A stretch of DNA of 64,000 nt from NCBI GenBank assembly GCA_000965745.1, contig CP009479.1, forward strand, positions 1,280,001 through 1,344,000. The letters run 5' to 3'. The notes beneath the pieces are model-generated. The model was not told the DNA's origin, made no database searches, and saw only the letters and a list, made by a program, of their open reading frames with translations. A program made the position numbers and the translations under genes. This DNA is from an uncultured archaeon (GTDB lineage: Archaea > Thermoplasmatota > Thermoplasmata > Thermoplasmatales > Thermoplasmataceae). Below, in pieces: positions 18,034-27,447 of this stretch (positions are counted from its first letter, which is position 1; each line of letters starts with the position of its first letter).

Positions 18034-18558
18034 ATGAAAGTTATTGTTGTTTACGACTCGATGTACGGTAATACGAGAAAGATTGCCGAATCAATCTCGA
18101 GTGCGTTTGATGGAACAGAGTGTATAAAAACGCTTCATGTTGAAAAGGCAACACCAGAGGATCTGAAAGGCTTTAGTCTCATTATCATTGGCTCTCCGAC
18201 CCATGGTGGGAGGCCAACGCCAGCTGTACATAAATTCATGGATAACCTGCCGGGCGCAGTCAAGAACGATGTCCATTTCGCATCCTTTGACACCAGATTC
18301 TCGGTTAAGGAACAGGGAGCTGGACTCAGATTCCTAATGAGATTGATCGGATACGCTGCAGAGAAAATTGACAGGAAAATGTCAGAAAAGGGGTACAAAC
18401 CAGTGGTAAAGCCTGAAGCGTTTATAGTTGTTGATAAGGAAGGCCCTCTCAGGGAAGGAGAGGAAGAAAGAGCCAGAAACTGGGGAAAAATAATAGAGGG
18501 TAAGATTGCACTACACAAAGGGGAAAATGTGACGGAACAGACACCACTCCATGGGTAG
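18034..18558 (+). CDS. Flavodoxin family protein
   Basis: 'VYDSMYGNTRKIA', 'IIGSPTHGG', 'FDTR'. Confidence 0.9.
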   Translation: MKVIVVYDSMYGNTRKIAESISSAFDGTECIKTLHVEKATPEDLKGFSLIIIGSPTHGGRPTPAVHKFMDNLPGAVKNDVHFASFDTRFSVKEQGAGLRFLMRLIGYAAEKIDRKMSEKGYKPVVKPEAFIVVDKEGPLREGEEERARNWGKIIEGKIALHKGENVTEQTPLHG

Positions 18559-18680: not shown

Positions 18681-18696
18681 ATGGGGCTGACCGGGT
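18681..18696. repeat. Distal att site (copy of the tRNA 3' end)
   Basis: Identical to 27298-27313. Confidence 0.88.
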
Positions 18697-18732
18697 ACGT
18701 CATTCAGGGTTCATTCCCGGAGGTGATGCCTG

Positions 18733-18891
18733 TTGCAGCCTGATCTGCACAACGTTAATCACATTTTTGAAGAAGGGTACAGAAGAGGGTTCAGGAAATC
18801 CGACCTGAACGAGCTCATTGAAGAATACCGGCTTGAGTACAGGGATGAGCCAAAAACTCTGCTGCAACTTCTTCTGGGGGTGGTATCCTGA
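18733..18891 (+). CDS. Small hypothetical element protein (52 aa)
   Basis: GGAGGTGA SD then TTG; MQPDLHNVNHIFEEGYRRGF...LLLGVVS. Confidence 0.55.
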   Translation: MQPDLHNVNHIFEEGYRRGFRKSDLNELIEEYRLEYRDEPKTLLQLLLGVVS

Positions 18892-19151
18892 TCATAAGGG
18901 ATTTCAACGATCAGGTTGCATACCACAGAGAAAGGGCCTTAACAGCCGTCTCCAATGACTTCAGGAACGCGACTAGCGAGTTGTGGACCTACATCAAGCT
19001 GAGCGGGAAGGCTACCCACGAGGAGCTGATGTATGTCACCACTGAAGAGAAGTCTCAGGAATATCTGAAAAAGGTGGTGAAATCATACCAGGGCTCCTGG
19101 CCTATTTACAATTCTAACGTGAAGGGCTTGATCCAGGAGGTGCGTGGATGA
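18888..19151 (+). CDS. Hypothetical element protein (87 aa, apparent CTG start)
   Basis: GGGGGTGG SD, overlaps the upstream stop, and its TGA overlaps the ATG of the helicase fragment. Confidence 0.5.
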   Translation: MIIRDFNDQVAYHRERALTAVSNDFRNATSELWTYIKLSGKATHEELMYVTTEEKSQEYLKKVVKSYQGSWPIYNSNVKGLIQEVRG

Positions 19152-19562
19152 GCGATATCACAGGCAGTCTGCTACACAGGGGCTCCTCAATCACTCCGGT
19201 TGAGATCGAGCCGGGGAAAATAAAATTATCCGATCTCGAACAGAGGAACATTATAATTGGCCGGCCTGGCACAGGGAAGACCACAACCTTGAAGGAAATC
19301 ATCGGGGAGTTCCTGAACAGGGGGAACTCACCATCCGAGCTTCTTTACCTCACATACAGCAGGGCAATGGCCTCAGACGCGAGAGAGAAAATCGGGCTGA
19401 AAAGGCACCAGGCAGGGACCATACATTCTATTTTTTCCATAAAGCTGGGCTGGAGGCACTCAAAGAACCCGAACAAATCCGCGTTTCTTTCTGACAAAGA
19501 TATGAGCGATTTCGCAGAGGAATACGGGATCAGGAAAAAATTCAAGGCAAGGCCCAGGGAAG
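19148..19562 (+). pseudogene. Truncated UvrD/REP superfamily I helicase
   Basis: 'IIGRPGTGKTT', 'LTYSRAMA', 'GTIHS'. Runs into intron-derived sequence at about 19563. Confidence 0.8.
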
Positions 19563-19845
19563 AGCACGGAAACACTCATCAAGGAGCTCAACGTCCTCGT
19601 AAGAAGATGGACAGACTACTTTAATCATGCGACAAGGCAGTACGAGAGCCTCCAAAACTTTGTCCGCTGGAAGGTCTCAAAATTTTACTGCGACTTGCAC
19701 AAGATTCCACGAGTCTCTAAAAGAAAGGAGTACGTAGGTATTGCGGCTACCTCCGGTTTAATAAGAATGGCAAGTAGGAGATCCTATCCATACACCGCAT
19801 GGTGAAGCACACCGGAAAGGCGTATTCGGAAAAATCGACCGTACG

Positions 19846-21798
19846 GTTTGGCACGCCGAGGAATACATATAATCAACCAATGTAAGTTTGGTACTGGAAA
19901 TTGCTGGTTTATCCAGTTAGCTACCAACGCAGTTAGTGGGGTGATCTACTGGCTGAAGTTGTTGGGATGCGAACCTGCAAGCCGTAGCGAGAGCGAACAC
20001 GATGTAGCACCGAGAGGTGTAGGAGGGAAGGCCGAAGATGTCGAACCGGCCTGAAGGCTATCATCGCATGGGAAGAGAACCAGAGGGCCATGCGGCTTCC
20101 CCGGTGTTTCAGTGGCGGCGGGCAGCGAAGGCCATGTGGGATAACTCGGGAGAACACACGGCGTCCTACCGTATTCATGGGGAGAGAATAGAGAGCTCTA
20201 ATGCGAGCCAATATTCGGGATACGAGCAGGTAGCCGGACCTATAACCCAAAAGGGAAATGGAGGCAATGCGCCGTGTGTAGTCGGAGTGGTTCATAGTAC
20301 TTATGACAGTGGGGACAGCATAACCTCACCAGAGGGAAGGGACCATACTCGGAACACGATCGTTCACAACCCGGGAGAGACCCATTCCCGAAAGGGTAGG
20401 AGGTCATAGCATGCTCGAAGGGTTGCAGGACGGTCTCTACCGGAGGGCTAAGGAAAACAAGGATGCTAGATTCAACACGCTCCATGACAAGATATACAGA
20501 ATGGACGTGCTGCAAGAGGCATGGAGACTGGTATGGGAAAACAGGGGATCGGAAGGTGTAGACAACCAGACGCTTGATGACATAAGAGAAGAAGGGATAG
20601 AACAACTGCTTGAACAGATACAGCATGAACTCAAAACAGGCACCTACAGGGCATCATGTGTCAGGAGGGTATTCATCCCGAAATCAAGCGGAAAACTCAG
20701 GCCGCTCGGTATACCAACAGTCAAGGATCGCATAGTGCAGCAGGCAGTTAAGTTGATCATTGAGCCCATATTCGAAGCAGATTTCTTGGAATTCAGCTAC
20801 GGATACAGGCCAAACAGATCGGCAAAAGACGCCTCTCTAGAAATATACAAGTGGCTCAACTACGGTCTCACCAACATAGTAGACGTCGATATAGAAGGCT
20901 TCTTCGACCACATAGATCATGAGCTTCTCCTCAAATTCGTGAAGGAAAGGGTCACGGACGGATACATACTTTCACTCATAAAACAGTGGCTCAAGGCGGG
21001 CATAGTATACGGAAAATCTGTGACAAATCCAACGGAAGGCACGCCTCAGGGGGTGTCATTTCTCCGTTGATTGCAAACACATATCTCAACAAGCTTGACC
21101 ACGCATGGGCTGAGATGAACATGGACAGCAATACAGGGCACAATGCGCACCTGATCAGATACGCGGATGATATTCTGGTGTTGACAGACGATGCACGCTC
21201 CTTCACCTTCAGTGGAAAGAATCACGCAAGGAACGTCATGAAGATCCTCTGGATGCTCGTAGGGAAGCTGAAGCTCAAATTGAGTGAAAGCAAATCCCGT
21301 ATAACAACCGCAGAGGAAGGTTTTGATTTCCTTGGGTTCCACTTCCTCAGGAGGTACTGGGAGAGATACGGAAAATGTGTATCCAGATTCTTCCCGTCGA
21401 AGAAATCTGAACTTAATTACAAGGCAAAGGTGAGTGAGATCACATCAAGACGACACGCGCACACAAAGAGCGAGGATGACGTAATCAGGGAATTGGACCA
21501 GCTCACAATAGGCTGGACAAACTACTATAACCACAGCCATGCATCGGAAACGTACGCAAAGCTCTGGAATTTCCTCTGCTGGAGACTAACGCAGTTCATC
21601 AGGTACAGGCACAAGCGCCGTAGCCTCGCTGTGGATTACGTCAGGCTGCGATCCTATGGCCTCATGCCCCCATACGGAAGAATAAGGCATAATTATACCG
21701 TGTGCCCACGGTGAAGTTCCCCGGATAGCCGGATTCGGGAAAACTGACAGTCCGGTTAGAGGCGGAAGGGTCAGGAGAAATCCTGATCTTTACCCCAC
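19846..21798 (+). mobile_element. Inner group II intron (IIB-like) encoding an RT/maturase
   Basis: D3-like GGAGTGGTTCATAGTAC...GAAGGGACCATACT at about 20285-20349, D5 AGCCGGAT...GTCCGGTT at 21727-21757, D6 ending ACCCCAC at 21798. 5' boundary uncertain (19846-19851). Confidence 0.82.
20411..21714 (+). pseudogene. ltrA: Group II intron reverse transcriptase/maturase with a one-base frameshift, no endonuclease domain
   Basis: 'RPLGIPTVKDR', 'SYGYRP', 'VDIEGFFD', TPQG|GVISP split at G5 21049-21053, 'RYADD', 'FDFLGF', 'GWTNYY'. Confidence 0.9.
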
Positions 21799-21883: not shown

Positions 21884-23327
21884 CTATACTCGACTGACCG
21901 CACACATAACTGACCTATTACGGTTGTAACCCCATATGAAACCCAACGTTGTTGTGTCACTTCCGCCATATAGTGACCCAGTGTCAGAACGAGGCTGAAA
22001 TTGGCCTCCTGTAGACATCCAAATAGTTACAGTGTATGTAAACGACTCGTATGTTGACTGGCTTGGTTGGAAGTTGAATTGATCCGAACTTGATTGCATT
22101 CCGAAAATATAAGCGTTCTTAAAAGTCGGGATAAAGCCCCACTTAAGGTAAGTGGATCCAATCAAATTGTAACCATATCCAGTAGCGGAGGTCCACTGAC
22201 CTGCATCTTGATTGAATATCCAAGAGTTATAATAGATCGTATCCACAGACCCTGCACTTACGACACCAAACGGGCTTATCAAAGGTACGTCGTAATAGGT
22301 TGCCACCGCAGAAATAGCTGCCCAAACAAGATCTGCAACTATCAGGGAGAGGGCACTCGAATTACCATGCTCCTGCATATCAACATTTGTCACATGAATC
22401 TTTAGCCCTTGTGGTTTGTTGCTTGGATTGTTTCCTAAAGTGTCCCCCGTCCATTTGTAAGCTTGGTTTATTTGGTTTACTCCGAAGGATGTTTGTATAG
22501 GCTGTATCGTAGTAGCTGCTTCTAAAGCAAAATTATTGTCTTCCCACTCATAATCCGAAGGTACTCTTGCGCTAAGCATAAACTTCGCTATCAGGTTCCC
22601 AGAGCTGTCGTATATCGGAGTTTTGCCAGTAGTAAACTTGTATTGACCAATTGTAGGATCAATAGTATAGGTCGCATTTCCCGGAATTTTGATGGGCGCA
22701 AAAACAAGTGTGATGTAATTTGCACCACTTGCCATAATAACGGACCCGGCAACAAAATTTGACTCCGCCCCGAGCCACGATAGAAACAACCCATTAGACC
22801 CGATCATGTAACTACCATGTGATATAGCGTAAGTTTTGCTTTGGTGTTTTCCGTTGAAATCAAATTGACCAGAGCTATTAAACCTCTTGACTGCAATAGT
22901 ATTTGAAGCAGGCATCTTTATATGTTCTACGACAATAAATGTGCTATTATGTGGTTCCTTGTTTGTTATTATAAGACTCTGCTCTAAGTCTGCCATGGTG
23001 ACAGAGTTCACTGTTCCGATCTTTGCAGTGGAGTAATTAGCACTTCTATAGATGTAGGTATGACCCTTCGGACCTTTTATTTGGGGATGCCCCAAGTTCA
23101 TGGGTAGCAAATGTTTTCCTCCGGCGACCATCTGATATACGGACCAAGATTGCTTGACATGCGATGTTCCTAGGCTAAATGAATTTTGGGACGATGTAAA
23201 CGTTAGAGTCGCAGGACCTTCTGGATAGCCGTGCGTGGTGGCATCAACGGCTAAAAATGTCAACCCACCTGTCACCATAATTACGGGCACAGCTAATGCA
23301 AGAAATTTTTTTTGTGTTCCCTATCAT
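21884..23327 (-). CDS. Secreted Ser/Thr/Asn-rich protein of unknown function; signal peptide frameshifted in an A8 run
   Basis: 468-aa ORF from 23290. ATG 23327 joins it (MIGNTKKFLALAVPVIM...) if A8 were A7. Confidence 0.65.
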
Positions 23328-23433: not shown

Positions 23434-24042
23434 TTGGGTACGTTTATGCGTGCAAAAAGAAAGAATAGCGTGAAAATATTGATAGCTATAATTCTTGCCG
23501 TTGCGGTGATAGCCCTATCAAATATTATAACGGCGCCACCAAACCTGCACCCCTCGAAAGTTTCCATATCTACTCCTTTGAATCAAGTGAATGTCTCCAA
23601 ATATAGTATATTCATGGATCCCATGGGCAGTAATACTACCTTTCAGATTGGTGGGCCTCATGCTTCCTCTAGTTATATTGCTTGGATAAATGGCCCTACA
23701 AATTACGTAGGGTCAGGAAATAATTTTGGTGTGCAAGTCTATTTGATGCAAACCTCACAAAATGTTACATCCTTATTCACAGGCAGCTCAATAAATGTTA
23801 TCCATGCAAGGTATATTCCTAATCGAGGCAATACGGTAACTTCCTATTCCGAAACTGCATACCCTGGTAGTGTGGGAGATTCCGGCATAACGATCTCCTT
23901 TAACGATCTAAGCAACGTTAACACCACGTCAACAGCAACTGTTAATATAACATTAGTTGAAGAGTCGATAATTGGCCCCTTTCATATATGGGGGCAGCAA
24001 AAGAATATTTCTTTGTCTTTAGAATTCAATATGACAAGGTAG
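23434..24042 (+). CDS. Membrane-anchored extracellular hypothetical protein
   Basis: Basic N-terminus plus TM helix, beta-rich domain with N-x-S/T sequons. Confidence 0.7.
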   Translation: MGTFMRAKRKNSVKILIAIILAVAVIALSNIITAPPNLHPSKVSISTPLNQVNVSKYSIFMDPMGSNTTFQIGGPHASSSYIAWINGPTNYVGSGNNFGVQVYLMQTSQNVTSLFTGSSINVIHARYIPNRGNTVTSYSETAYPGSVGDSGITISFNDLSNVNTTSTATVNITLVEESIIGPFHIWGQQKNISLSLEFNMTR

Positions 24043-24635: not shown

Positions 24636-24882
24636 ACGAGTCTCAAGCCATAGCAGACTTACAATTTTTCGTTGCGAGATGTTATCCATATTTTTGACAA
24701 TGCCCCCTTTAAAACAATGTTACCTACAGAGCAGCAGTCAAGGCAAGCCTGAAAGGGTTATCCCAGCCAGTTTCAACTACTCTTTACTTTTTCTTCATTA
24801 ACATTTTAGATGGATAGTTACGGTTTGAACTGTATTTGACTGAAACTCTAACGTTATTGATATGCCCGCACTAAACTAATGA

Positions 24883-26347
24883 CCTGACTTTCTCCTATCT
24901 TTTATACACTAGGTTCCTGATCTCCTCCTGTTTCTTTGACAGTTCAACATTTGCACCCCACTCCATGCCGGATTCAGAATCTTTCAGCTCAACCCTGTAC
25001 CCATGGCTAAGGATGTCAAGTGCATCCGATCCGGAGATTCCTGTCTTTTCTATCCTGTACTGCAGTGTCGCAAGGATGGCGTACGAGAGATAGCAGATCT
25101 TTATGTGCGCATTCACGTGGGAGAGCATCCAGAACCTCACTGGCCTTAGGGACAGTATGCCCTTCATCTGTTTGAACGCCCTCTCCACCACATTCTTGGC
25201 ATAGTATTTTTTCACAACATCCGCATCTTCCATGCCTGTGTTGTGATATATGAGCGAATATCCCAACAGGGACGCGATTTCCTCATCCTCAGAGTGATCG
25301 TAATAATGCTCCCTCCTGATGGATTCAAGATACGGATTGTACACAACAATGAGTTTTCCGGACAGGAAGTCCATGGATTGCGTATAGACATGCGTGTTTC
25401 GCAGCTCGATGCGATTTCCCTTCCTGTATACCCTGCTTTTGTCGATCTTGAGCAGAATGTCCCTGAAACTCTTATTCTTCACGACGCCGCATATTATCTT
25501 CATGCGAAGCTCAAGTGCATCATCTATATTCTTCCGGGAATAGAAGCCACGGTCCAGGATGACTGCTGAATAGCCCTTCTCCTTCAGCAGTGAGATCATC
25601 TCCCTGTACATTCGTTTTCCGGAGATATTTCCTCCGTGCGTGCGGTGGAAGAGCGGAAAACCATGATCCTCTGTGACAGCAAGGGCGATCTGCACCAGCT
25701 TCTTCACCTTCTCCTCCTTGCCCCTGCGTGCCTTGCCTTCAATGCTGTCACCTTCGAAATATGTGTCTGTTACATCGATTATGACTGCATTCCTGTCATC
25801 AATGGACGAGAAGATTCCTGACAGTGATTCCTCCATCCTGGAGAAATCCATCTCATTCAGGGTGTCCAGGGAATCGTAAAGCCTTGCTGTACTTGTGGCT
25901 TTGATGCCAAGGATATCAAGCATGTCCGTGTATGAGAGCCACTCCTCCATCCTGTTGATCGACGGACGATCAAGAAGCTGCGAATACACAAGGATCAGGA
26001 TCTCACTGTCGAGACTGGTGATTCCCAGATCAGAGGCGATCCTGTGGATTATTTCAATGTCAAGATGCTTCCGGACTGCCTGTACCTGTACGGAAGAGGA
26101 CATGATCCTCCTGACCACCTCTCCCTCAACGTCCTTGCCTATGTACCTGATGACCTTCTGCCTGGTTCTGCCATTCTCCCACACAGATTCCACCTCGGCA
26201 AGATATGTCCCTGAAGGCTTCTTGATCTTCCGTATGAAGGACATGATGTATAAGATATACATCATGCAGTTATTAAAGCTATCTACAATAAAGCAGTGAA
26301 TAACAAGGTCACAAAGCATGATGTATAAAATGGGTCAAAAACTTAGG
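24883..26347 (-). mobile_element. Complete IS1634-family insertion sequence
   Basis: Ends CCTGACTTT / CCTAAGTTT and 6-bp TSD TAATGA at 24877-24882 and 26348-26353. Confidence 0.85.
24895..26244 (-). CDS. IS1634-family transposase
   Basis: 'MSFIRKIKK..GTYLAEVES', 'IDVTDTYFEG', 'ILDRGF', 'VERAFKQMK..L.LRP', 'VNAHIKICYL'. Confidence 0.88.
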   Translation of the reverse strand: MSFIRKIKKPSGTYLAEVESVWENGRTRQKVIRYIGKDVEGEVVRRIMSSSVQVQAVRKHLDIEIIHRIASDLGITSLDSEILILVYSQLLDRPSINRMEEWLSYTDMLDILGIKATSTARLYDSLDTLNEMDFSRMEESLSGIFSSIDDRNAVIIDVTDTYFEGDSIEGKARRGKEEKVKKLVQIALAVTEDHGFPLFHRTHGGNISGKRMYREMISLLKEKGYSAVILDRGFYSRKNIDDALELRMKIICGVVKNKSFRDILLKIDKSRVYRKGNRIELRNTHVYTQSMDFLSGKLIVVYNPYLESIRREHYYDHSEDEEIASLLGYSLIYHNTGMEDADVVKKYYAKNVVERAFKQMKGILSLRPVRFWMLSHVNAHIKICYLSYAILATLQYRIEKTGISGSDALDILSHGYRVELKDSESGMEWGANVELSKKQEEIRNLVYKR

Positions 26348-26466
26348 TAATGAGACCTCATAGTATCAAGTTATTCCGATAACGAACACGAACAAGGTCG
26401 AGAACCGGTTGCCCAAGAGACAACAGGGCAGCGAGAAGAGTAGCTTCACTGACGAGGCACATCGAC

Positions 26467-27339
26467 GTGCTGAATCCAAAACAGGGAGAGGTCAACACAT
26501 ACTTCCAGAAGAGGATAAGAGACACATCACTTTCAAAGACCACGATCATAGCTGAAGTGAATGATCTCAGACTGTTCTGGAATGGATACCTTGAGCTAGG
26601 AATAAAGCTCCTTCCGTTAAAGACACCTCCAGAGAAGGACGTATGGATACCAACTGACCAGGAGGTTATCAGGATAATGAAGGCAGCGGAGCATTCAAGC
26701 GCTGACAAGGGAATAGCGCTCAGGAATTCACTGATCACCAGGATGTTCTTCCTCGGCTGCATGAGAGTTGGGGAAATGATGAGGATCCGCTTAAACGACG
26801 TAGATTTTGAGTTGGGCGGTGTCAATATCAGGTCAGAAAAGGGTGAAGCTGATCGTTTTGTCGGTTTCCATCCGGACATCTTGAAAGACCTGAAAACTTA
26901 ATTGAATGTTTACAGACCCCGCACTACATTCACTCAGCTCTGGATCGCGACGAAAAAGGGAAAAACCCAGAGTTCTGTGGAGCCTATCACCTACGCTGGG
27001 CTTCGGAAGCTATCCAAGGTCATGGGGCTTTCCGCAGGCGTGACCCAATTCCATTGGCATGCTGCGAGGCACTGGGGCGCAACAGCCTATCTATATGGGC
27101 GTCTGGGAGTACCACCGTTGGGAATCAGATCGGTTCAAAAACTTCTCGGTCATGTGTCATTAAAGACGACTCAGAGGTATACTCACGTCACAGACAGGGA
27201 CGTTGCAAAAGAGGTGATATCCGCGCAAAGAAAATTATTTCGCGGGCATGAAAAAAATGAGGGATTAAGGGGCGTGAAAGCCCCTATACCGAACCCTATG
27301 GGGCTGACCGGGTTTGAACCGATGACCACCTGGTTATGA
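26467..27339 (+). pseudogene. int: Tyrosine recombinase/integrase with one in-frame TAA (26899-26901)
   Basis: 'GCMRVGE', 'SEKG', 'HAARH', 'LLGH', 'TQRYTH' in the same frame across the stop. The C-terminus runs through att into the antisense tRNA. Confidence 0.88.
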
Positions 27340-27372
27340 GCCAGGCGCTCTACCTAGCTGAGCTACAGCCCC
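27299..27372 (-). tRNA. tRNA with CAU anticodon, probably tRNA-Ile2 (agmatidine-modified)
   Basis: Cloverleaf GGGGCTG...CCTGG CTCATAA CCAGG...CAGCCCCA. Ile versus elongator Met is inferred from the sequence and from pairing with tRNA-Asn. Confidence 0.85.
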
Positions 27373-27374
27373 AG

Positions 27375-27447
27375 CGCCGCTGGTCGGATTCGAACCGACG
27401 ACCGCTCGGTTAACAGCCGAGTGCTCTACCAGCTAAGCTACAACGGC
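27375..27447 (-). tRNA. tRNA-Asn(GUU)
   Basis: GCCGTTG...CTCGG CTGTTAA CCGAG...GTTCGAATC...CAGCGGCG. Confidence 0.95.

Follow-up and report, generated by a model that had tools for sequence, protein, structure and literature searches.

In the 64-kb stretch of DNA analysed here (the window), an 8.6-kb integrative element, now decayed, occupies a tRNA-Met gene of a Thermoplasmata archaeon, and the integrase/tRNA junction marks its right end (attR). We consider it probable, with some reservation, that this element represents a Thermoplasmata-specific family whose att site falls within the final codons of the integrase gene, that selection in this family has maintained an overlap between the integrase stop and the start of the next gene rather than the tail peptide itself, and that the copy described here is a fossil of such an element.

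A decayed element in the tRNA-Met gene

An exact 16-bp direct repeat is present in the window at 18681-18696 (the attL core) and at 27298-27313 (the attR core). The right copy coincides with the 3' end of a tRNA-Met(CAT) gene, covering everything from the discriminator base through the first 3 nt of the T-loop, and this gene (27298-27373, minus strand; ARAGORN, Rfam tRNA 70.8 bits) is the integration target. It is followed in the host flank by a tRNA-Asn(GTT) gene (27374-27447, minus strand; ARAGORN), and an aTrm56-HD gene (Pfam) adjoins the tRNA pair. The same Met-Asn pair also adjoins related integrases in other genomes; in another community, all that remains of a related integrase beside tRNA-Met/tRNA-Asn is its final ~74 codons (L082 and L083, 4028-4361). 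A flavodoxin gene (18034-18558) forms the left flank of the element. Across the complete 2.23-Mb genome, the only matches of at least 15 nt to the tRNA-Met segment are the left repeat copy and a second tRNA-Met gene, the chance expectation for one given 16-mer on both strands of this genome being ~0.001. With flanking direct repeats that reproduce the tRNA 3' end and an integrase that adjoins the tRNA, the locus has the arrangement of a tRNA-targeting integrative element.

Past the attL core the element continues, as at other attP-type junctions, with a spacer, an SD and a small ORF of 52 aa (18733-18891, plus strand, TTG start; HMM built from homologues, E 5.6e-19), which is the first gene of the element. 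Its C-terminus is degenerate here, and it no longer shares the family's customary ATGA with the gene that follows. Intact relatives carry a 528-aa UvrD helicase directly after the small ORF. The window retains an N-terminal remnant of a UvrD-like SF1 helicase (19148-19624, plus strand; Pfam UvrD-helicase and AAA_19) and, in the helicase region, a group II intron (19883-21714, plus strand; Rfam group-II-D1D4-6 at 19883-20116) whose RT/maturase frame is broken, with RVT_1 and GIIM split over two ORFs. The AT-richer middle of the element holds two cargo ORFs without a Pfam family, one of 468 aa (21884-23290, minus strand) and one of 202 aa (23434-24042, plus strand). Further to the right lies an IS DDE transposase (24895-26319, minus strand; Pfam DDE_Tnp_1), from an IS that is present in one copy in its own genome and has possible ends at 24682 and 26350; its putative terminal inverted repeats, 17 nt long and imperfect, directly adjoin the integrase where its 5' end is cut short.

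The tyrosine integrase itself is a 5'-truncated pseudogene (26413-27339, plus strand). PF00589 (Phage_integrase) is matched on both halves of a frame that is split over two ORFs by an in-frame TAA at 26899-26901, which replaces Y145, a Tyr invariant across the 17 homologues aligned, and which a single base change accounts for. About 32 N-terminal codons are lost beside the IS: in a tblastn comparison with P0002 the match begins at P0002 residue 33 (~26413-26422), with the in-frame stop visible, and full-length relatives measure 316-345 aa. Recoding of the TAA was ruled out on the grounds of the invariant Tyr, the single base change and an own-genome paralogue that is intact under the standard code. 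Given the in-frame TAA and the lost 5' end, the protein as read is not made; the frame in the window is not an intact, translatable integrase gene, and because it is a pseudogene no switch is able to operate here. The window copy of the element is a fossil. All sequence facts stated in the preliminary description of this DNA held up, and neither the TAA nor the 5' loss had been part of it.

A clean attB or empty site was not obtained among same-genus and same-family relatives: these carry the tRNA-Met/tRNA-Asn pair without an adjoining integrase, in a flank not homologous to the left flank of the window, and no tRNA lies near their flavin-reductase-like gene. To judge from the loci compared, the tRNA-Met/tRNA-Asn site is occupied repeatedly, and its elements decay in place.

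In the alignment of 17 homologues R100, K125, H198, R201, H229 and Y238 are invariant, and the tyrosine recombinase catalytic set is thus present. All of these residues lie upstream of att, as had been claimed before, the core (frame M-G-L-T-G) corresponding to integrase residues 278-282 of 290, ~40 codons past the catalytic Tyr. Since the core is inside the frame and 3' of all catalytic residues, integration exchanges the extreme C-terminus only. AlphaFold2 models the catalytic domain of the window integrase confidently, with pLDDT <50 from residue 260.

The integrated and circular forms give the integrase two different ends. In the integrated form the frame reads through the core into the antisense tRNA, acquires the tRNA-encoded tail FEPMTTWL (27314-27339 with its stop, plus strand) and terminates eight codons past the core at TGA 27337-27339, a stop that overlaps the anticodon, within the antisense anticodon loop. 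Joining the two repeats to reconstruct the circle gives the end YVIQGSFPEVMPVAA followed by TGA, a 15-residue tail drawn from the P' arm at 18697-18743 (plus strand), where a 36-nt spacer has no stop in the integrase frame and contains the SD. This SD (GGAGGTGA, 18719-18726) is fully complementary to the 3' end of the 16S rRNA of its own genome and lies 6 nt upstream of the small-ORF TTG, while the circle-form integrase stop (18741-18743) ends 11 nt after the first base of that TTG. The read-through into the antisense tRNA, the alternative end in the circle and the SD spanned by the circle tail had all been proposed in the preliminary description, and each agrees with the reconstruction.

Integrase ends and att cores across the family

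A protein search together with scans of genomes and metagenomes gathered ~40 close relatives of the integrase, all from Thermoplasmata; a scan of IMG/VR yielded no close relative, with identity at most 32%. Nearly all integrases of the family end in antisense-tRNA translation, across the att core, at targets that comprise tRNA-Met, tRNA-Pro(TGG), tRNA-Pro(GGG), tRNA-Ile and one intron-bearing tRNA, and because almost all relatives do so, reading across the core is the rule of the family. The switch proposed earlier presupposed that homologous integrases do not stop before att, and this is what the ~40 relatives reveal, the sole exception being P0013; this candidate for an integrase that stops before att was rejected, being a copy integrated at tRNA-Pro whose frame is shifted by 1 nt. 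Tails in the integrated state range from 0 to about 60 aa and are set only by frame and tRNA.

The core extends over the tRNA discriminator base, the 3' acceptor strand, the 3' T-stem strand and the first T-loop bases, amounting to 14-22 bp. It measures 16 nt in the window, between attL and attR of L018 (Thermogymnomonas) and in L012, 16-22 nt at the remaining attP-type junctions and 14 nt at the junction in the window's own genome, and attL and attR of L050 share 20 nt, part of which is integrase-remnant sequence upstream of the tRNA end. L018 and L050 are the only integrated loci with both element ends recovered, most elements being longer than the flanks examined. Cores are short wherever both sides can be compared, so the 16 nt in the window represent a normal att site rather than a remnant; a longer, decayed att identity in the window was rejected, no similarity being found beyond the 16 nt and the family norm being 14-22 nt. 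Free and integrated counterparts can be paired among the relatives in three cases (L076 vs. L075, L185 vs. L184 and L010 vs. P0006).

Several loci illustrate how such elements are arranged. The genome that contains the window holds a second family member at about 696750-749465 (G000:C1; right end in L002), whose intact 324-aa integrase (748.5-749.5 kb), a paralogue of the one in the window, ends 49 nt inside antisense tRNA-Pro(TGG). The probable attL of this second member, 52.7 kb upstream, combines the core GGGGCTGCCCGAAT with a degenerate small ORF and the 3' remnant of an integrase; this tRNA-Pro element may be large or tandem. On one 556-kb MAG contig, two family integrases lie in tandem ~35 kb apart (L012 and L013), with an attP-like junction behind the upstream copy and tRNA-Pro behind the downstream one, which agrees with the tandem integration reported for archaeal integrases of the non-suicidal kind. 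In L050 (182-1957), a 1.7-kb remnant between attL and tRNA-Pro(GGG) keeps the small ORF and the last ~100 integrase codons, and a further integrase 3' remnant lies ahead of its attL. Finally, the P' arms of L010 and L180 are near-identical to those of L177-L179 over the 170 nt that lead up to the small ORF, and the cores of the two sets differ at two adjacent bases (GCTGATCGAAT vs. GCTGCCCGAAT) and match different tRNAs, which suggests one element type retargeted through core changes.

Free-form junctions and the conserved small ORF

Contigs in which the integrase and the core are followed by non-tRNA sequence were taken as free-form contigs, which represent free forms or tandem junctions, and for the window, L018 and L050 the attP junction was rebuilt from attL. 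At 11 distinct attP-type junctions, which are phylogenetically not wholly independent of one another, the integrase frame remains free of stops for 35-110 nt past the core and terminates 4-38 nt inside the small ORF, falling 4-17 nt after the first start-codon base except in L032 (38 nt). In the free form the integrase leads straight into the following gene, in line with the earlier claim that the circle form of the window element places it in tandem with the helicase operon. A second junction set was picked through the small-ORF profile, and so was unbiased by the position of the integrase stop; it gave the same outcome, the frame open as far as the small ORF being the one in which the core is read as in the cognate integrase. 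When stops were counted per frame at 8 junctions, the integrase frame had 0 stops in the spacer, and the other frames had at least one stop in 6/8 and 7/8. The integrase frame is likewise open in L032, L050 and L175-L185, which brings the total to ~11 spacers that resemble one another little or not at all.

Every attP-type or attL junction carries the conserved small ORF, whether the junction was picked through the integrase or through the small ORF. It is always the first gene after the core, starting 35-110 nt past it behind an SD, and encodes 45-57 aa with an LLEVLE-like motif at the C-terminus, where it overlaps the next gene (copies besides the one in the window lie at L010 3237-3386, L012 10875-11033, L076 3592-3729 and L080 693-842). 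Its profile matches 20 database clusters, all unnamed or "hypothetical," with no Pfam or PHROGs match above threshold and one sub-threshold MerR-DNA-binding match, a lead that makes the encoded protein a candidate regulator of excision or replication. The genes that follow the small ORF vary by element (UvrD-like helicase, MCM or prim-pol), and because these downstream genes differ, it is the integrase, attP and small ORF that form the conserved module.

One junction departs from the overlap rule: at the probable attL of the own-genome tRNA-Pro element (~696.75 kb), a degenerate junction, the integrase stop would lie 60 nt before the small ORF. We also observed T-rich TATA-like boxes (TTTTTAC, TTTTATTT) 35-55 nt before the small-ORF start in L012, L024, L080, L175, L010 and L177, which may be archaeal TATA boxes inside the tail-coding stretch of the integrase.

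The degron idea put forward in the preliminary description called for conservation of the attP-encoded tail, and a check across ~11 junctions found none. The tails measure 12-25 residues (about 50 in L032) and end in VAA, AGV, EVQ, CYP, AIL, AMV, APC, VFA, CPA and others, and the G/E/V/A-rich stretch that they have in common is the SD read in two different frames. Within one subgroup of three related junction sequences (L080, L175 and L176), a hand codon count of the L080 vs. L176 tails gave 8 non-synonymous and 2 synonymous changes, and the blocks that remain unchanged among the three are the T-rich TATA-like box and the SD region, which argues that DNA signals are conserved and not the peptide. 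AlphaFold2 gives the tail a pLDDT <50 in both tail forms (in the attP-type relative from residue 298), and the tail is predicted to be disordered in integrated-type and attP-type proteins alike.

The closest relative (63% identity) is represented by two loci, one of them integrated beside tRNA-Met and tRNA-Asn (L007) and the other an attP-like contig (L008) that keeps 42 nt of tRNA identity including the stop before continuing into unrelated sequence. Because the 42-nt identity includes the stop, the protein of the closest relative is identical in both contexts. No small ORF is present in L008 within 86 nt past the stop, where the contig ends; L008 may be the free form of this element or a tandem junction.

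Readings of the overlap and comparison with known systems

Across the family, the core sits within the last integrase codons, ~40 past the catalytic Tyr, in a segment predicted to be disordered; with the core in this position, the stop codon is always supplied by whatever follows it, which is the antisense tRNA in the integrated state and the far end of the element (the P' arm) in the circular state. In the reading that we favour, what selection would act on is the overlap between the integrase stop and the small-ORF start, rather than the tail peptide. The overlap of the integrase with the next gene looks selected, and we infer that it acts as translational or transcriptional coupling: in the circular form, integrase translation or read-through would probably be coupled to the small ORF, and integration would break this coupling and give the integrase an arbitrary tRNA-encoded end. 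The TATA-like boxes suggest that the small-ORF operon may have its own promoter, and coupling to the integrase may therefore be dispensable. A more specific version, which we regard as rather unlikely and put forward as a tentative idea, is that attP lies inside a translationally coupled junction of the integrase and the ~50-aa protein, such that the integration state would drive or block that protein and the replication genes; the ~50-aa protein would then be a candidate recombination-directionality or replication regulator.

It is also possible, if doubtful, that the arrangement is a neutral by-product of a compact element in which the core happens to lie beside the integrase end, with neither the tail nor the small-ORF overlap having a function. 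Such an origin would accommodate tails that are not conserved and are predicted to be disordered, integrated tails whose length of 0 to about 60 aa follows from frame and tRNA alone, and a frameshift variant (P0013) that has no tail at all. The two exceptions to the overlap rule (own genome at ~696.75 kb, and L008), together with the possible promoters in the spacers, keep the neutral reading alive, but it has to contend with ~11 dissimilar spacers of 35-110 nt in which the integrase frame is without exception open and the other frames are mostly closed by stops: at ~0.37 open per spacer the joint chance is of order 1e-5, a figure that overstates the independence of the junctions.

The integration-dependent switch proposed in the preliminary description was of a different kind, in which an ssrA-like tail on the circle form (...VAA) destabilises the integrase until integration replaces it. 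From what the sequences alone can tell, the C-terminus swap on which it was built is real by geometry; the degron part found no support, nor could such a switch work through the pseudogene in the window, and we consider this explanation improbable. It draws on the VAA end of the reconstructed window tail, on the small or hydrophobic residues that end most attP-type tails, and on a precedent in mycobacteriophage BPs, where C-terminal degradation signals are found on integrase and repressor (PMC4557955). However, only one of about 11 tails has an AA end, the hydrophobic bias follows from GGAGGTG plus spacer being read in frame, with two frames used, substitutions within the subgroup are mostly non-synonymous, and the closest relative carries the same tail in both contexts; with the attP-encoded tail not conserved, the degron idea is unsupported. 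An ARAGORN scan of the window returned no tmRNA, and archaea are not known to have a tmRNA/ClpXP system. That the 16-bp repeat is a chance match, with the borders of the element elsewhere or no element present, is highly improbable: the failure to find an empty site in relatives would agree with it, but the repeat begins right at the tRNA 3' end, like those of related elements, is the sole such match in the genome (the second tRNA-Met gene aside), and is followed by the SD and small ORF conserved in the family.

Among known systems, the closest precedent is phage Mx8. A passage in one paper (PMC6070905, citing Tojo 1996 and Magrini 1999) describes that in Mx8 (and Mx9) attP lies inside the tyrosine integrase coding sequence and that integration, which turns intP into intX, gives the gene a new 3' end. 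In the family described here, attL/attR reconstruction and the paired relatives likewise place attP in the integrase coding sequence, with a new integrase 3' end gained upon integration and the catalytic residues kept together. The Mx8 primary papers reportedly describe the exchange of a long C-terminal segment, with changes in activity; the family, by contrast, exchanges only 8-25 poorly conserved and probably disordered residues. Further differences from Mx8 are that the family is archaeal and that its integrase stop lies inside a conserved downstream ORF.

The "suicidal" integrases of SSV1, pTN3 and pT26-2 have att in the ORF, target the 3' part of a tRNA, and are split and inactivated on integration (PMC7253208, PMC8371274). 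The family resembles this type in having att inside the integrase ORF, a tRNA 3' target and att-encoded residues that are translated tRNA, but differs in having the core 40 codons past the catalytic Tyr and in keeping its catalytic domain undivided. In the window, with the core at residues 278-282 of 290 and the catalytic residues upstream, integration does not partition the catalytic core, and this contrast with SSV1, already drawn for the window in the preliminary description, holds family-wide, the extreme C-terminus alone being exchanged. In mycobacteriophage BPs, attP lies in the repressor gene, and an ssrA-like C-terminal degradation tag on the free form has been tested (PMC4557955). As in BPs, attP lies within a reading frame and integration alters the C-terminus of a protein; unlike in BPs, the frame crossed by att is that of the integrase instead of the repressor, and sequence comparison of the ~11 junctions, which differ from one another, finds no conserved free-form C-terminal degron.

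SNJ2-type haloarchaeal integrases use a 14-bp core at the tRNA 3' end and have an integrase-att distance that is conserved within subgroups, with att located 48 bp downstream of the integrase stop in subgroup I (PMC5861418). The family shares with these and other non-suicidal integrases (type II, pNOB8-like) a tRNA 3'-end core of similar length and an integrase that adjoins att; unlike in SNJ2-type subgroup I, its integrase stop lies beyond the core. Passages of a review of archaeal tyrosine recombinases describe att inside the integrase gene for the "suicidal" class only (PMC8371274). Judged against these systems, the family is an intermediate, with a core that lies in the reading frame yet beyond the catalytic domain, and its geometry is Mx8-like and archaeal, with the addition of an integrase stop that regularly falls inside the next gene of the circular form.

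For annotation, these results mean that the C-termini of the family integrases, and possibly of others, are partly translated tRNA genes and should not be taken for domains. In the window the element survives as a dead remnant, whose consequence for the host is limited to an occupied tRNA site. If the overlap is functional, it would provide Thermoplasmata elements with a simple way to sense integration, and the conserved, unnamed small protein would be a likely regulator of integration or replication. Should the coupling reading be true, the family would represent an archaeal integration-dependent switch that works through gene coupling and not through the tail peptide.
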